DNA of 64,000 bases from an uncultured Clostridia bacterium (GCA_934162615.1 CAKPJK010000001.1:29754-93753); one strand, 5' to 3'. Positions 5,769 to 43,908 are shown, numbered from the stretch's first letter. The notes: generated by a model not told the origin, from the sequence alone. Made by a program: numbers and translations.

Positions 5769-6284
5769 ATGCAGGAAATAACTGAAATTTTAAAAACAGA
5801 TAATTATTTGTTAAGTTTAAGTGTATTAGTTTTAATATTATTTATTGGAGTCATAGTATTATTAATAAATAATGTTAATATGTCAAGAAAATACAAAAAC
5901 TTTATGAAAAAATTAGGAAATGGCAAGGATCTAGAAGAAGATTTAAGCAATTATATGTATAGAGTTGACAGAGTTGAAAAACAAAATGGTCAAATAATGG
6001 AATTTTGTAAAAGCCTAGATAATGATTTATCAAAATGTATACAAAAAGTTGGAGTTGTTAGATATAGCGCTTTTAAAGATACAGGAAGTGATTTAAGTTT
6101 TGCAGTAGCATTATTAGATGAGCAAAATTCAGGTGTTGTATTTAATGGCATTTATTCTAGAGAGATGTCTAATATTTATGCTAAACCGGTTGAAAAGGGT
6201 AATTCTTCTTATACATTGTCTGCGGAAGAGGCAGAGGCTATTAGAAGGGCTATTAATTCAAATAATGTATATAGGGAAAAATAA
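5769..6284 (+). CDS. DUF4446-family protein (conserved partner downstream of parB in Firmicutes)
   Basis: N-terminal TM, then VGVVRYSAFKDTGSDLSFAVALLD..GVVFNGIYSRE..YAKPV pattern as I recall for DUF4446. Synteny after parB. Confidence 0.75.
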   Translation: MQEITEILKTDNYLLSLSVLVLILFIGVIVLLINNVNMSRKYKNFMKKLGNGKDLEEDLSNYMYRVDRVEKQNGQIMEFCKSLDNDLSKCIQKVGVVRYSAFKDTGSDLSFAVALLDEQNSGVVFNGIYSREMSNIYAKPVEKGNSSYTLSAEEAEAIRRAINSNNVYREK

Positions 6285-6330
6285 ATTAGGGATAATTATA
6301 ATATATCAAAAAAAGAATAAAAAAGTCAAT

Positions 6331-7653
6331 TTAGGCTTTTTTATTCTTTTTTTCTATTGTACACACATTTTTCCATGCTATTAAAATACATATCATAAAG
6401 ATTAACATATGCCTGTATGTGAATCTCGTGTGAATAATGGTATGATTACTTAGTACTAAATACCATACGATAGGCATTAATGAAATTAATAATATTGGTA
6501 ATGTTATATTTAAATAATCTTTTTTATTTTGTAATTTAATTTTATATTTATTTATATTTAATAAAAAGATAAATATTCCAAAGTTTCCAATAATAGCACT
6601 ATAAATTATATTTGATAATGTAAAACTTCCTATTACTTCTGATATTTTTGTTGTTTTAAAGCTTACACTTGTTTCAGTTCTATAAATAACTTGCAAAATA
6701 GCACTTTTAATAATACCTTCATTATATAAAATATCATATATAAGCCATTTGCTAAACCAAGTTAATGCATAACCTAATAACCATATTAGACTTGATTTTA
6801 TTATGATTTCTATAAAATATTTATATTGTAAATCGCTATTTTCTTTTTGTTTATAAGTTATATATAAAATTAATGGAATAGCAAGTGTAATTAAAGGAAC
6901 TGTTAAATAATCTACGTAATTTGTTATACACGCAATTATAAAAATAAATAAATATAAATTTTTAATTTTATCAATTCTTTTAAGTAATATTATACTTGAT
7001 ATCATCATAACTAAAAATACAGGAGCACTTTCTAAAGAATAGGATACCAAAAAATATCCATATAATATTAATGAAACTGCAAATATTCCGGCATTTATTA
7101 TTCCTATTTTATTTTTAATTAATTTTATTAACCAAATAAATAAGAATATAAAAATAATTAATAAAAGAATGCGAATTTCACTAATATTAAAAAATATTAA
7201 CAATGTTCTAAGGATAGGTAAATATCCATGCCAATAACGAGCATATGTGACAGATGTATCAATATTTCCATCTAAAAATTCAGCTAATTCTCCAACAGTG
7301 TCATAATCTTCAATATTATTTAATGAAATTGAATCTCCATTTTGATCAGTAAGTGAATTTTTTGTGATATTTTTGTTATAGTTTTTTCTTACAGCCATGC
7401 ATGAATAAAGTGGATTTTTGTTGTCTATAGAGTAAGCTTCGTTTATCATTAATGCATCTGTATAATTATTATTTACAACGTGTGACCAATCAAAAAATTG
7501 ATACAAATTTCCTTCTTCTGTAAGTATTTTTGAGGATTTTTTTATATTTTTTTCTATTATATTTGAAGGAAATAAAGAACTTATAAATAATAAAAAAATA
7601 AATATTAATAATAATCCTAAAAAAATTAAAGGGTATTTAATTATTCTTTTCAT
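6331..7653 (-). CDS. Polytopic integral membrane protein, function unknown; operonic with the GT2 gene
   Basis: 440 aa, at least 9 hydrophobic segments. Start lies 2 nt from the stop of the upstream GT2 gene. Confidence 0.6.
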   Translation of the reverse strand: MKRIIKYPLIFLGLLLIFIFLLFISSLFPSNIIEKNIKKSSKILTEEGNLYQFFDWSHVVNNNYTDALMINEAYSIDNKNPLYSCMAVRKNYNKNITKNSLTDQNGDSISLNNIEDYDTVGELAEFLDGNIDTSVTYARYWHGYLPILRTLLIFFNISEIRILLLIIFIFLFIWLIKLIKNKIGIINAGIFAVSLILYGYFLVSYSLESAPVFLVMMISSIILLKRIDKIKNLYLFIFIIACITNYVDYLTVPLITLAIPLILYITYKQKENSDLQYKYFIEIIIKSSLIWLLGYALTWFSKWLIYDILYNEGIIKSAILQVIYRTETSVSFKTTKISEVIGSFTLSNIIYSAIIGNFGIFIFLLNINKYKIKLQNKKDYLNITLPILLISLMPIVWYLVLSNHTIIHTRFTYRHMLIFMICILIAWKNVCTIEKKNKKA

Positions 7654-28110: not shown

Positions 28111-28139
28111 TTGCAATAAGTAAATATTTATTATATAAT
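28111..28139 (+). promoter_or_regulatory. Sigma-A type promoter of small peptide gene 1
   Basis: TTGCAA (28111-16), 17-nt spacer, TATAAT (28134-39). Confidence 0.45.
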
Positions 28140-28169
28140 TACTTTGCCTTCAAAAAGGAGGTGAAGTGA

Positions 28170-28241
28170 ATGAATGAATTGAAAAACATGTTGAAAATCA
28201 TTTTAATATTAAAACTTTTAGAGTTTTTGGAAAGTGATTGA
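28170..28241 (+). CDS. 23-aa peptide MNELKNMLKIILILKLLEFLESD; type I toxin candidate
   Basis: SD AGGAGGTG 6 nt upstream. Own promoter and terminator. Paralog of the 22-aa ORF at 33661-33729. Not in the ORF track because it is too short. Confidence 0.5.
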   Translation: MNELKNMLKIILILKLLEFLESD

Positions 28242-28247
28242 AATTTA

Positions 28248-28326
28248 AAAAGAACAGGACTGGCATCCTGTTCTTTTATAAGTTCATGAAAGAACTGAAA
28301 AACATTTTTGTTATTTGCTTAAGCTA
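28248..28326 (-). ncRNA. Convergent small RNA (antitoxin-like) of module 1
   Basis: Minus-strand promoter TTGACA (28360-28355), 17-nt spacer, TATACT (28337-28332). Ends at the shared terminator. Its 5' part is complementary to 28170-28192, the start codon and first codons of the peptide gene. Confidence 0.45.
28251..28278. terminator. Bidirectional terminator shared by peptide gene 1 and the convergent sRNA
   Basis: AGAACAGGA...TCCTGTTCT stem, flanked by an A-run upstream and a T-run downstream. Confidence 0.7.
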
Positions 28327-28439
28327 TTTGTAGTATACTACATATTTTATTATATGTCAATATTTACGAAAAAATTCATATTAACTATAAATATATTTTA
28401 TATTAGAAATTTAATTATAAAATAAAATTTAGTACAATT

Positions 28440-32986: not shown

Positions 32987-33526
32987 ATGAAAAATAAAAA
33001 AATTTTAATTTTATTTATAATTTCAGTAATTTTAATTGTAGTTATAGGATATTTTGCAATTAAATTTGTTAAACAAAAGAAGAGCAATGAAATTCAAAAC
33101 GAATATGTTCCACAAGAGGAAATATCTGATGAGCAGTCAAGAGAAACAATTGTGAGTTTATATTTTGCAGATAAAGAAACCGGTCTTTTAAAGCCAGAGG
33201 CAAGACTTGTAAATGTAAAAGATTTAATAAAATCACCTTATAATACTTTGGTTGAGCTTTTAATTTCTGGTCCTAAAAATGATAAATTAAAAGTTGTTAT
33301 CCCTGAAAATACTAAACTTTTAAATGCTTCATTAGATAAAGAATGTTTAACTTTGGATTTTTCTTCTGAGATTTTGAATTATAATAAAGATGATAGTATG
33401 CTTAAAAATAATTTAATTTATTCAATTGTTAATACTGTTACTGAGTTAAATGAGGTTAATAAGGTTAAATTCTTGGTTAATGGTCAGGCATCTAGTGATT
33501 TTGAGGAGTTTTATGTGAGAAAATAG
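32987..33526 (+). CDS. GerM-domain (germination/sporulation) lipoprotein-like protein
   Basis: N-terminal TM, then VSLYFADKETGLLKPEARLV...LISGPKN...LDKECLTLDFSSE, a GerMN-like pattern. Confidence 0.75.
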   Translation: MKNKKILILFIISVILIVVIGYFAIKFVKQKKSNEIQNEYVPQEEISDEQSRETIVSLYFADKETGLLKPEARLVNVKDLIKSPYNTLVELLISGPKNDKLKVVIPENTKLLNASLDKECLTLDFSSEILNYNKDDSMLKNNLIYSIVNTVTELNEVNKVKFLVNGQASSDFEEFYVRK

Positions 33527-33571
33527 TTTGAAAAATTTGACATATGGTAAAGTATGTGTTAATATATATTT

Positions 33572-33659
33572 AGCAATTGCAAAACAAGTTTTTCAAAAAG
33601 AAATAAACAAAAAAGGACTGGGAATGTCTCTCAAAACATTTTTCCCAGTCTTTCTTTTT
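33572..33659 (+). ncRNA. Convergent small RNA (antitoxin-like) of module 2
   Basis: Promoter TTGACA (33537-42), 17-nt spacer, TAATAT (33560-65). Terminator stem 33616-33650 plus T-run. The 5' 45 nt are complementary in three blocks to the SD-proximal/start-codon region of the minus-strand peptide mRNA (33703-33742). Confidence 0.5.
33616..33650. terminator. Bidirectional terminator shared by module 2 transcripts
   Basis: GACTGGGAATG...CATTTTTCCCAGTC stem with U-runs on both strands. Confidence 0.7.
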
Positions 33660-33660
33660 G

Positions 33661-33729
33661 CTATTTGCTTAGATATTTTATTATGTAATAAATTAGTATA
33701 AGCTTTAGCAAATCTAACAAGTCTTTCAT
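33661..33729 (-). CDS. 22-aa peptide MKDLLDLLKLILIYYIIKYLSK; type I toxin candidate
   Basis: Minus-strand promoter TTGACA (33804-33799), 17-nt spacer, TAATAT (33781-33776). SD GGAAGGAGG. Paralog of the 28170 peptide. Confidence 0.5.
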   Translation of the reverse strand: MKDLLDLLKLILIYYIIKYLSK

Positions 33730-33837
33730 TTAAGAAATAAACCTCCTTCCTGCCACTAAGCAAGTCGGCGATTTAATATTAATATAAAATCTGTTTATTG
33801 TCAATAGTAAATTAATATATACTAATTTGTAAATATT

Positions 33838-34125
33838 TTAATGATTCTTTCTATTAAAAATATTTGAAACATTTTTATATAATTTAACATAATCCCAGAA
33901 ACCTTGAAAATCATTTAAAAAATGTTCAACTTCATTTAAAGAATTAATTGTATTTTTTTTGCAAGTTTTAAAATTAAGCTTTTTCTTTTTAGGAGGAGAA
34001 GGTTTTTTTGGTGGTGGCTTTGGTTTTGGAGGAGGAGGTGGTGGTGGTACTAAATTTTTGGGTGGAGGAGGTAGAGGACATTTGCAATTATTTTTATTTT
34101 TTTCACATCTATATAAAGTTGGCAT
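33838..34125 (-). CDS. Hypothetical 95-aa protein with Cys-rich N-terminus and long poly-proline/lysine tract
   Basis: ORF only. CEKNKNNCKCPLPPPPKNLVPPPPPPPKPKPPPKKPSPPKKKK, followed by a non-repetitive C-terminal 45 aa. Weak SD. The antisense ORF (Gly-rich) is shorter. Confidence 0.4.
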   Translation of the reverse strand: MPTLYRCEKNKNNCKCPLPPPPKNLVPPPPPPPKPKPPPKKPSPPKKKKLNFKTCKKNTINSLNEVEHFLNDFQGFWDYVKLYKNVSNIFNRKNH

Positions 34126-34255
34126 AGAAACACTTCTTTCTTTTATTAAAATATTTATAATATAGTATTAAATTGATGTGAAAATTGTTAATATGTAGTT
34201 AGATGAATAAATTGAAAAATTTGACATATAATAAATTATGTGCTAATATGTATTT

Positions 34256-34330
34256 AGCAATTGCAATAAATGGTTTCAAAGATAAATAAAAAAGACTAGG
34301 TGTCGCTAAACAAATCCTAGTCTTTTTTTA
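34256..34330 (+). ncRNA. Third, orphan copy of the antitoxin-like sRNA
   Basis: Promoter TTGACA (34221-26), 17-nt spacer, TAATAT (34244-49). The 5' sequence TATTTAGCAATTGCAA is shared with the sRNA at 33572. Terminator AGACTAGG...CCTAGTCT plus T-run. No adjacent peptide ORF. Confidence 0.45.
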
Positions 34331-34381
34331 TCCAAAATTGTTGTAACATTTTAATATAAAATAAAGAAGAAAGAGAAAAAC

Positions 34382-35140
34382 ATGGAAATAGAATTAAAAG
34401 AAAATGAAAGAATAGACGACTTAGAATTCAAAAACCTAAAAATAATCCAAAACACAAAAGGGTTCTGTTTTGGAATTGATGCAGTATTATTATCAGACTT
34501 TGCAAAAAATATAAAGAAAAATGCAAAAGTATTAGATTTAGGAACAGGTACAGGAATAATATCAATTTTATTATGTGGAAAAACAAACTTAGAAAAAATA
34601 GTAGGTGTAGAGGTTCAAAAAGAAGTTGCAGATATGGCAAAAAGAAGTTCAAAATTAAATAATCTAGAAAATAAATTTGAAATAATAAATGAAAATATAA
34701 TAAATTTGGACAATATATATGAAAGAAATTCTTTTGATGCTATAGTAACAAATCCACCATATAAAAAAGAAAATACAGGAATAGTAAACGAAGAAGAAAA
34801 AAAGTTAATTTCAAGACATGAGGTATTAGCAAAGTTAGAAGATTATATAAAAATATCTAATAAATTGTTAAAAGATAAAGGCGAATTTTATATGGTTCAC
34901 AGGCCAGAAAGATTAGTTGATATCATTGCATATATGAGACAATATAAAATTGAGCCAAAAGAAATAAGATTTGTATGTTCACATAAAAAAGAGCCACCAA
35001 AATTAGTATTAATTAAAGGAGTAAAAAATGCAAAACCATTTTTGAAATTTAAAGAAGATTTGTACATATATAACGATGATGGAAGTTATACTGATGAAAT
35101 TTTTGAGATATATAACAAAAGAAAAAATGTTGAAAATTAA
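34382..35140 (+). CDS. tRNA (adenine37-N6)-methyltransferase TrmN6/YfiC-like (B. subtilis yabB position)
   Basis: SAM motif VLDLGTGTGI and catalytic VTNPPYKK. Synteny with rsmI and abrB. Confidence 0.8.
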   Translation: MEIELKENERIDDLEFKNLKIIQNTKGFCFGIDAVLLSDFAKNIKKNAKVLDLGTGTGIISILLCGKTNLEKIVGVEVQKEVADMAKRSSKLNNLENKFEIINENIINLDNIYERNSFDAIVTNPPYKKENTGIVNEEEKKLISRHEVLAKLEDYIKISNKLLKDKGEFYMVHRPERLVDIIAYMRQYKIEPKEIRFVCSHKKEPPKLVLIKGVKNAKPFLKFKEDLYIYNDDGSYTDEIFEIYNKRKNVEN

Positions 35141-42453: not shown

Positions 42454-43704
42454 ATGGATAATACAGTAGAAGAAGCAAAAGCTATATTAAAAAAATACAA
42501 TCAAGAACATTTATTGAATGGTTATGAAAATTTGGATGAAAGAAAACAAAAGCAGTTATTAGATCAAATAATGAATATAAATTTTGAATTGATAAAAAGT
42601 TTATATGATAACACAAAAAGTGAAAAATTATCTAATGATGATAAAATAGAACCAATGGATTATTTGGATAAAAACAAATTATATGATGATTATAAATATT
42701 ATGAAAATATTGGAAAACATGCAATACAAGAAGGAAAACTTGCTGCAGTTACTATGGCTGGAGGACAAGGAACAAGACTTGGACATAGCGGACCAAAAGG
42801 AACTTATGATATAGGTTTAGATTCGCACAAATCTTTATTTGAATTATTAAGTGAGGGGCTAAAAGAAGCAGGAAAAAAATATGATGTTACTATACCATGG
42901 TTTATAATGACAAGTAGAGAAAATAATGAAGAAACAGTAAATTTCTTTGAAAAAAATAAATATTTTGGATATCAAAAAGACAAGAATATATTTTTCTTTA
43001 TTCAAGGTGAATTACCAATGGTAGATACAGAAGGAAAAATATTAATAGGTGAAGATGGATTAATAAAACAAGCTGCTGATGGACATGGTGGAATTTATGA
43101 ATCATTAGTAAAAAGTGGTATGACTGAAAAAATGAGACAACTTGGTGTAGAATGGGTATTTATAGGTGGTGTTGATAACTGCCTTGTAAAAATGGTAGAC
43201 CCAGTACTTATGGGAGTTGCTATTGATAAAGGTGTTACAGTTGCTTGTAAATCAATTGTTAAAGCAAATCCACATGAAAAAGTTGGTGTTTTCTGCAAAA
43301 GAAATGGAAAACCAGGTGTTATAGAATATTCAGAAATTACTGATGAAATGGCAGAGGCAACAGATAAAAATGGTGAACTTTTATATGGTGAATCACATAT
43401 ACTTTGCAATTTGTTTAGTATTGATGCAGTAGAAAGAATGGGTCAAACACCATTACCATACCACAGTGCTTTTAAAAAAGCTAAATATATTGATAAAGAT
43501 GGAAACTTAGTAGTTCCAGATTCTCCAAATGCATATAAATTTGAGGCTTTCTTGTTTGATGCTTTTGGTGAGGTTGATGATATGGCAATTCTTAGAGTTA
43601 AGAGAGAAGAAGAATTTGCACCTGTAAAGAATGCTGATAGTGCTGGAGTTGATTGTCCAAGTACTGCTAGAAAATTATATGAGGATTTCCATCATTTAAA
43701 ATAA
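42454..43704 (+). CDS. UDPGP-family UDP-sugar / UDP-N-acetylhexosamine pyrophosphorylase (eukaryotic UAP1-like type)
   Basis: TMAGGQGTRLGHSGPKGTYDIGL nucleotide-binding loop, typical of the UDPGP family. ATG 42454 preferred (SD AAAGGAAG). Confidence 0.8.
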   Translation: MDNTVEEAKAILKKYNQEHLLNGYENLDERKQKQLLDQIMNINFELIKSLYDNTKSEKLSNDDKIEPMDYLDKNKLYDDYKYYENIGKHAIQEGKLAAVTMAGGQGTRLGHSGPKGTYDIGLDSHKSLFELLSEGLKEAGKKYDVTIPWFIMTSRENNEETVNFFEKNKYFGYQKDKNIFFFIQGELPMVDTEGKILIGEDGLIKQAADGHGGIYESLVKSGMTEKMRQLGVEWVFIGGVDNCLVKMVDPVLMGVAIDKGVTVACKSIVKANPHEKVGVFCKRNGKPGVIEYSEITDEMAEATDKNGELLYGESHILCNLFSIDAVERMGQTPLPYHSAFKKAKYIDKDGNLVVPDSPNAYKFEAFLFDAFGEVDDMAILRVKREEEFAPVKNADSAGVDCPSTARKLYEDFHHLK

Positions 43705-43908
43705 AATAAAAGAGTAGGTTAGTAAAATATGAGTTAGCCTACTCTATTTTTAACTTCTCAAATAATTTTCCAAAAACTCTTTATTTATTTTTCAAATAAT
43801 GATATTATAATCATATCAAAAATTATTGTCAAAAACGCAAGTCTAATGACATAATAAAAATTGTCAAAAAAGGGCGTCCTTAATGACAGAAAAGAAAGGA
43901 TTGATAAA

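Follow-up and report, generated by a model that had tools for sequence, protein, structure and literature searches.

Whether a peptide of 22 amino acids (aa) and a small RNA (sRNA), encoded convergently at positions 33537-33804, form a toxin-antitoxin pair is the question raised by this locus, here called module 2. It lies in a stretch of 64,000 nucleotides (nt) from an uncultured Clostridia bacterium (GCA_934162615.1 CAKPJK010000001.1:29754-93753), the whole of which we refer to as the window and which has a G+C content of 27%. A reading made from the sequence alone (the sequence-only reading) had described the locus as a type I toxin-antitoxin-like module in mirror-image arrangement to a paralogue, module 1, and this description is now supported by conservation across a family, by co-variation of the two RNAs and by an architecture like that of the par locus. 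We consider it likely that module 2 is a par-like chromosomal type I toxin-antitoxin module; what stays most in doubt is whether the peptide is a toxin. Sequence comparison establishes the anatomy of the locus, the conservation of its open reading frame (ORF) and ribosome-binding site (RBS), a lineage-specific co-variation between the RNAs and an asymmetric pattern of loss. The features of module 2 are as follows, with the evidence for each in parentheses.

33537-33565, plus strand: promoter of the sRNA (antitoxin) gene, TTGACA-17-TAATAT with a TGn extended -10 (sequence; TGn is common family-wide).
33572-33659, plus strand: predicted sRNA2, ~88 nt, whose single-stranded 5' targeting region precedes the terminator hairpin (covariance model R1, 76.9 bits, E = 5e-13; fold).
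33572-33609, plus strand: 5' targeting region of the sRNA, with direct-repeat blocks at 33583-33595 and 33598-33608 (direct repeats, duplex energy).
33609-33657, serving both strands: bidirectional intrinsic terminator common to both genes, with a 17-nt loop (inverted repeat and fold).
33606-33769, minus strand: predicted toxin mRNA, ~160 nt (drawn from promoter and terminator).
33661-33729, minus strand: 22-codon ORF, candidate toxin, MKDLLDLLKLILIYYIIKYLSK, with its ATG at 33729 (homologues, codon analysis).
33703-33745, minus strand: translation-initiation region of the mRNA predicted to pair with the sRNA, from just 3' of the RBS to codon 8-9 (repeats, duplex).
33742-33750, minus strand: RBS, a Shine-Dalgarno (SD) sequence GGAAGGAGG with the ATG 12 nt downstream (sequence).
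33749-33769, minus strand: 5' leader of the mRNA with a short hairpin (CUUGCU/GGCAGG) adjoining the RBS (fold; one co-varying pair, weak support).
33776-33804, minus strand: promoter of the toxin mRNA, TTGACA-17-TAATAT without an extended -10 (sequence).

The promoters and the ORF with its SD sequence were found where the sequence-only reading had placed them (TTGACA-17-TAATAT at 33537-33565 on the plus strand and at 33804-33776 on the minus strand; GGAAGGAGG at 33750-33742; 22 codons at 33729-33661), and the hairpin that it had given as 33616-33650 and as common to both transcripts has a G+C core at 33615-33651, within arms that span 33609-33624 and 33642-33657 and are each followed by a T-run on their own strand. 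A simple terminator scan overlooked this hairpin because of its 17-nt loop; across the family, the terminator loops measure 11-17 nt and are unusually large, AU-rich and variable, and the stem GACTRGG/CCYAGTC (GACTAGG/CCTAGTC) is nearly invariant. At the terminator, that is, at their 3' ends, the sRNA and the mRNA are fully complementary across ~54 nt. The start of sRNA2 is placed from the position of the -10 element. Its end falls at ~33659 and the stop codon occupies 33661-33663, so that the 3' overlap halts at the stop codon and stays outside the ORF.

A second region of complementarity lies in the 5' parts of the two RNAs and is underlain by direct DNA repeats (33583-33595 versus 33716-33728, 92%; 33598-33608 versus 33732-33742, 100%), with a third pairing block in which AGCAA stands against TTGCT. 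For the 5' part of sRNA2 against the 5' part of mRNA2, RNAduplex gives -30.7 kcal/mol (z = -7.5), compared with -12.4 +/- 2.4 kcal/mol for dinucleotide shuffles, none of the 300 equalling the observed value. The sequence-only reading had proposed a match in three blocks, about 31 bp in total, from just after the SD sequence to codon 8. The complementarity is indeed present, but the third block, TTTAGCAA, is only partly transcribed: with a start site 7 nt past the -10, just its AGCAA is inside the RNA, and the block is 5-8 nt long and the whole match 28-31 nt, according to the true start site.

Relatives were gathered by a synteny-based scan that used the flanking methyltransferase as the query (67 species-level loci) and by a metagenome scan for a pattern of the RBS and central codons, the two together yielding 60 module segments and 31 peptides, all distinct. 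The closest relatives are uncultured gut Clostridia, namely 'Clostridium sp. 28_17' (98% identity for the flanking methyltransferase), CAG:389 and, more distantly, Candidatus Scatovivens. The family, whose absence elsewhere would by its own terms have refuted the sequence-only reading, is present in at least eight species-level genomes and many metagenome contigs: intact units of the module-2/3 type stand at syntenic loci (L001 and L028, and two each in L003, L005 and L009), and units of the module-1 type in seven loci. A convergent sRNA promoter and a common terminator accompany the ORF in 57/60 segments by pattern match and in 2 more by eye, the remaining segment being uncheckable as its contig ends within the expected -35 region; apart from that segment, no toxin ORF without a convergent sRNA was found across the 60.

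Comparison among these relatives supports functional RNA pairing. In five diverged lineages, the sequence from the RBS to codon 6 is almost wholly different and the sRNA complement matches it in each, with cognate duplexes of -21.5 to -30.7 kcal/mol and non-cognate ones of -7 to -15. When 34 distinct sRNA/mRNA pairs are compared, duplexes between cognate partners have a mean of -27.8 kcal/mol and non-cognate combinations one of -13.6 (standard deviation, 5.4), and the cognate mRNA is the best partner for 23 of the 34 sRNAs and among the top four for all 34. The duplexes predicted for these pairs run, at the median, from -10 to +23 relative to the start codon, a span that falls inside the ribosome-binding window, with 17-34 nt paired and 2-3 nt of the start codon paired in 34/34. 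Judged from the sequences, then, the targeting region of the sRNA co-varies with the translation-initiation region of its own mRNA, lineage by lineage.

An RNA interaction alone would not require a peptide, and a module of this kind could be read as a pure convergent sRNA pair, in which the 22-codon frame is untranslated and the SD-like sequence is an element of RNA structure. The sequence-only reading had singled out conservation of the RNA without the ORF as the mark of such a pair; the ORF itself is found to be conserved. The peptide is exactly 22 aa long in 27/31 distinct variants and the position of the stop codon is conserved, although some 8% of random codons are stops at 27% GC, which by a base-composition estimate gives an open 22-codon frame a P of ~0.14. 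A GGAGG core followed after 5-13 nt by ATG, TTG or GTG is found in 60/60 modules, and [AG]GAAGGAGG or GAAAGGAGG serves as the RBS in almost every one of the 44 distinct leaders. Synonymous codons alternate at conserved residues (TTG, CTG, TTA, CTA, CTT and CTC at L7, L8 and L10; AAA and AAG at 10:10 at K9), and the ratio of nonsynonymous to synonymous polymorphism (pN/pS) shows a clear effect of frame, with 0.56 in frame versus 0.79 and 2.03 in the other two frames, or 0.61 versus 0.76 and 3.79 for codons 2-12. Charged residues recur at the ends of the peptide (K2 in 25/29 ORFs, D/E3 in 21/29, and S/D/E/K at positions 21-22), and TAG is the stop in 27/29 distinct ORFs despite the 27% G+C. What speaks for an untranslated frame is that none of the 10 peptides looked up by exact match in a collection of 15 billion predicted proteins was present, that pN/pS is not very low and that RNA pairing constrains the first 10 codons regardless. 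Set against the invariable SD sequence, the constant length and the codon pattern, we regard this explanation as very improbable and retain the view that the mRNA of module 2 probably encodes a peptide.

The distribution of the copies bears on another possibility, that module 2 is a chance or selfish miniature intergenic repeat with no regulatory function. Copies do occur at several unrelated intergenic sites and in tandem: many metagenome modules are at non-syntenic intergenic sites adjoining housekeeping genes, with neighbours that by inspection include an RpoD-type sigma factor, a Tex-like protein, an ABC-F protein and an aspartyl-tRNA synthetase, and on some single contigs there are two modules that differ in peptide and in sRNA 'barcode', arranged in tandem or separated by several kb (L161, ~5800-6110; L193, ~2200 and 7320; L215, ~1230 and 2610). 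Comparison of filled with empty sites, however, shows no terminal inverted repeats or target duplications, and the promoters, RBS, ORF and terminator are kept across ~25-40% DNA divergence with compensatory change, so that a mere repeat is barely credible to us as an account of module 2. A blastn search of plasmids with the module gave no match, and the viral contigs held no relative of the family, the leader pattern matching only an unrelated phage gene there; five blastn matches to Enterococcus phages were rejected as short AT-rich chance matches.

If module 2 is a regulated peptide gene, it remains to ask whether the peptide is likely to be harmful. Three aspects of the family bear on this. 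First, translation initiation looks deliberately weak family-wide, as judged from the leaders: in the 60 segments the start codon is TTG in 28, GTG in 8 and ATG in 24, and the SD-start spacing is 6-8 nt in TTG leaders and often 5 or 11-13 nt in ATG leaders (12 nt in module 2), off-optimal values of 5 or 11-13 nt being found in 5 of the 7 distinct ATG leaders. Second, the promoters are unequal. A TGn extended -10 is present in 23/26 distinct sRNA promoters versus 1/32 toxin promoters, and the sRNA promoters are nearly perfect, with 5.9 of 6 matches in the -35 and a 17-bp spacer; from these stronger, extended -10 promoters an excess of the sRNA is predicted. Third, loss is asymmetric. Four orphan sRNAs were found (sRNA3 in the window, L002_a, L005_b and L008_a); L005_b and L008_a consist of the sRNA only, the toxin half being gone, and L002_a, which arrived at the same state independently, retains just the C-terminal codons. 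In all, at least three independent deletions have stripped off the toxin half, the sRNA staying behind with an intact promoter and terminator. Elsewhere, L001_b has its middle deleted between repeats, and the module 1 of L006 (3949-4165) is decaying, with a premature stop that leaves 14 codons and with the -10 region of its sRNA promoter deleted. The sRNA without the toxin, never the reverse, is what would be expected of a peptide that does harm when its sRNA is missing, and this asymmetry indirectly favours a toxin-antitoxin logic.

The same evidence bears on the possibility that the peptide is a non-toxic small membrane or regulatory peptide (for example, a modulator of a membrane protein) whose level is tuned by the antisense sRNA. 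Such a role would suit a peptide that has fewer residues and a less even hydrophobicity than type I toxins usually do, and modules that adjoin housekeeping genes rather than mobile elements, without plasmid or phage matches. It sits poorly with initiation that is attenuated throughout (TTG or GTG starts in 36/60 and suboptimal spacing in most ATG leaders), with an antisense promoter that is consistently the stronger one, with several paralogues per genome that have private sRNA specificities and with the repeated deletion of the peptide half while the sRNA is kept. Weak initiation, the stronger antisense promoter, the paralogues and the loss pattern are together typical of toxin-antitoxin systems and unusual for an ordinary small protein; we therefore think a harmless peptide unlikely and prefer to regard module 2 as a candidate toxin-antitoxin module.

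Several observations nonetheless weigh against that preference: (i) gene conversion, and not selection for RNA pairing, could in principle keep the direct repeats alike; (ii) for a 5' stem-loop over the RBS of module 2, RNAalifold returns a consensus of 3 pairs with one co-varying pair (G-C to A-U in 4 sequences), and since this support is weak we claim no masked RBS for module 2; (iii) a pN/pS of 0.56 denotes modest constraint only; (iv) the search pattern fixed codons 13-18 of the metagenome matches, the YxI[IV]K core also being found in the synteny-derived set, which is free of this bias; (v) the peptide is atypical as a membrane toxin, having only 22 aa and a low hydrophobic moment, and only 8 uncharged residues stand in a row between Lys9 and Lys18; (vi) no toxin family was matched by the peptides in searches of Pfam, NCBIfam, PADLOC and the Protein Data Bank (PDB), with 0/31 variants matching any Pfam toxin family at E <= 10 and no PDB chain matched by the peptide profile; and (vii) an alignment to Fst by hhalign covers 7 N-terminal residues only (MKDLxxL) at 4.6% probability. 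Five motif strings from the family peptides likewise returned nothing from the searchable literature. Other roles for the peptide were considered and rejected: an amphipathic helix resembling the phenol-soluble modulins does not fit the low hydrophobic moment (0.09-0.25); a leader peptide or attenuator is at odds with an mRNA that terminates directly past the ORF, with no gene downstream on that strand; and, for a bacteriocin or quorum peptide, a leader is missing and no transporter or modification gene lies nearby.

The window holds further members of the family. Their features are as follows.

28111-28360, both strands: module 1, a paralogue in mirror orientation to module 2 (sequence, fold, duplex and repeats; orthologues in 7 loci).
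28111-28139, plus strand: toxin promoter of module 1.
28170-28241, plus strand: ORF of module 1, MNELKNMLKIILILKLLEFLESD.
28239-28286: terminator of module 1, common to both genes.
28325-28243, minus strand: sRNA1, with its promoter at 28360-28332.
34221-34331, plus strand: orphan sRNA3, with its promoter at 34221-34249 and its RNA at 34256-34331 (R1, 71.4 bits).

Run over the 64 kb, the covariance model R1, a check that the sequence-only reading had suggested, finds sRNA2 (76.9 bits), sRNA3 (71.4 bits) and sRNA1 (30.2 bits), and only these copies. All three sRNAs that this reading had counted are therefore there, but the third (34256-34331) does not belong to a complete module, its toxin half having been deleted. 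A profile of the peptide matched only the ORFs of modules 1 and 2 in the window. The motif that the two peptides had been said to have in common, M..L...LK.ILI....YL, needs correction at its final YL, in place of which MNELKNMLKIILILKLLEFLESD has FL.

Module 1 has its RBS within a 5' hairpin and a 29-nt direct repeat (83%) that spans the start codon, with a duplex of -27.0 kcal/mol (z = -3.9); an anti-SD arm able to pair with the RBS is present both here and in the 'GCCUUUC' leader variants. Orphan sRNA3 shares 91% identity with sRNA2 across the promoter and 5' end and 98% with the sRNAs of intact modules (L009, L003 and L005); there its counterparts are complete and a TTG-started ORF encodes MKPFIKLLALYIVYLIVKHFDD. 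It lost ~200 bp between two TTTTTTAT microhomologies (junction near 34325-34335), a segment that had carried the ORF, RBS, leader and toxin promoter, and its own promoter and terminator are still intact. The window contains no partner ORF for it, and it shows no complementarity to mRNA2 (z = -0.1). Both types of sRNA start with a short palindrome (GCAATTGC or GCTTAAGC).

In all sRNAs of modules 2 and 3, a lineage-specific 'barcode' comes after the 5' seed AGCAA, whose pairing partner is UUGCU in the conserved Leu-Leu codons. The 5' end of the module-1 sRNA, AGCUUAAGCAAA, is conserved and is complementary to codons 7-11 of mRNAs of the module-2 type, not to its own mRNA. For sRNA1 against mRNA2 (28243-28325 versus 33690-33730, both on the minus strand), the predicted duplex is -27.8 kcal/mol (z = -3.2), with -22 to -27 kcal/mol for orthologues; in general, the predicted duplexes of module-1 sRNAs with module-2-type mRNAs, at -22 to -28 kcal/mol, are as strong as cognate ones. 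This complementarity may reflect real cross-talk or have been left over from a common ancestor. The common seed, the cross-complementarity of the module-1 sRNA and the persistence of orphan sRNAs could together reflect a cross-protecting network of antitoxins, with an anti-addiction or hierarchical role, and not just insulated pairs; the toxin would then be the smallest of the Gram-positive type I toxins and, having only 8 uncharged residues in a row, might act at the membrane interface and not as a transmembrane helix. We hold this broader scheme to be an outside chance.

An inverted repeat, ACATA-N8-TATGT, is found in the spacers of the three sRNA promoters (33543-33559, 34227-34243 and 28338-28354). 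A near-identical promoter (TTGACATATAATAAAATATGTAGTACAAT) drives a phage protein gene on two viral contigs (L088 and L091), and because it serves a viral protein gene, the spacer motif is not specific to the toxin/sRNA family.

How module 2 would work can be outlined with par as the guide; transcription, the start sites, the translational block, kissing of the terminator loops, toxicity and the membrane target are all inferred by analogy, and the order of pairing and the involvement of an RNase are inferred as well. From the minus-strand sigma-A promoter an mRNA of ~160 nt would be made, bearing a strong RBS and the 22-codon ORF for a small, hydrophobic, helical peptide, and from the stronger, extended -10 promoter on the plus strand a convergent sRNA of ~88 nt. 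The RNAs would first meet through their complementary terminator stem-loops, as in par of pAD1 (PMC7472228). Since the two genes carry direct repeats, the single-stranded 5' region of the sRNA could then pair around the start codon, so that pairing would extend to the 5' repeats and occlude the RBS and start codon (~-10 to ~+23), and a double-strand RNase may gain access to the mRNA through the long 3' duplex. Synthesis of the peptide would be off while the sRNA is in excess, the peptide being made only as the sRNA falls, and the peptide, if made, might insert into the membrane and arrest growth.

Other elements of the window deserve brief mention. Between module 2 and sRNA3, a 95-aa proline/lysine-rich ORF (…CPLPPPPKNLVPPPPPPPKPKPPPKKPSPPKKKK…) on the minus strand (33838-34125) is conserved in related contigs (tblastn, 73-100%) and belongs to no Pfam or NCBIfam family. 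Weak R1 matches at 6308-6379 and 43703-43778 were rejected as generic A-rich sequence with a terminator, not family members. The second of these brought to the surface a separate candidate small RNA, unrelated to the toxin/sRNA family, at 43705-43835 on the minus strand, where a consensus promoter TTGACAATAATTTTTGATATGATTATAAT precedes a predicted transcript of ~95 nt that ends in the hairpin AGAGTAGG…CCTACTCT and a T-run. On the same strand, 55439-55515 matches the Rfam skipping-rope RNA (RF02924) with 46.9 bits, exceeding the gathering score.

The mechanism proposed for module 2 is familiar par logic and is not conceptually surprising. If the proposal is true, par-type wiring extends to a toxin without a detectable Fst signature, and 22 aa is among the shortest candidate toxins available for structure-function work. 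The family would also provide a comparative resource, with 31 variants of the peptide and 34 natural 'compensatory mutants' for the RNA pairing, from abundant uncultured Clostridia of the human and animal gut, and this set of natural co-variation could act as a specificity map for antisense recognition.

Among known systems, the closest in wiring is par (Fst/RNA II of Enterococcus faecalis pAD1 and its chromosomal relatives), the defining features of which are convergent promoters, a bidirectional terminator and direct repeats over the initiation region (PMC7472228). Module 2 has the convergent promoters, the bidirectional terminator and an overlap at the 3' ends only, outside the ORF, and its oppositely transcribed direct repeats, like DRa and DRb, give a second complementarity over the translation-initiation region; Fst/RNAII and SprA1 have been set apart from other Gram-positive families by just such an overlap that stops short of the ORF and an interaction outside it (PMC8594479). 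In par, a U-turn (YUNR) motif in the terminator loop starts the kissing complex, and not all par homologues have one (PMC7472228). The peptides are alike in a start of MKD(L), a charged end and a Firmicute host. They differ in length (22 aa versus ~27-35 aa for Fst) and in sequence, no PXXXG being found in any of the 31 variants and no match to Pfam Fst_toxin or to NCBIfam, and a 5' stem-loop over the RBS is not clearly present in module 2, unlike in par. An Rfam search gave no gathering-threshold match for the sRNA in the window, and at E <= 10 scans of both modules returned noise only (E >= 0.9 over 33400-34400). SprA1/SprA1AS of Staphylococcus aureus, a relative of Fst/RNA II, resembles module 2 in its 3' overlap and in an interaction placed outside that overlap, at the 5' translation-initiation region (PMC8594479). 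Its toxin, PepA1, is a 30-aa member of the Fst family, to which the peptides described here have no sequence or profile similarity.

The Ibs/Sib systems of Escherichia coli offer a different kind of likeness, in a very short hydrophobic toxin (18-19 aa for Ibs), several paralogues per genome and cognate-specific sRNAs. ORFs of the Ibs type are usually missed by gene callers (PMC2887945). Sib, however, is antisense over the whole ORF, while the sRNA gene of module 2 lies downstream, does not overlap the ORF and is predicted to pair via repeats; the host phylum also differs. Within the class Clostridia, the type I systems described are essentially those of Clostridioides difficile plus a few Fst/TxpA-like matches (PMC6563280). 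Of these, CD2517.1-RCd8 and its relatives have convergent toxin and antitoxin genes (PMC6563280) but encode toxins of 34-59 aa with a lysine-rich tail, overlap over a long stretch and are in many cases located in prophages or beside CRISPR arrays, traits that module 2 does not share. The sequence-only reading had likened module 2 to Fst in wiring while remarking on a shorter peptide without the usual proline, and both halves of that remark hold, the par architecture matching and PXXXG and Pfam Fst_toxin being absent. Because the architecture is that of par and the peptide failed the tests for Fst, we classify module 2 as par-like in its working and not as a demonstrable member of the Fst family: by its sequence, it is one of a new family of candidate toxin/sRNA modules under par-type control, whose unannotated peptide has no match among the described families.

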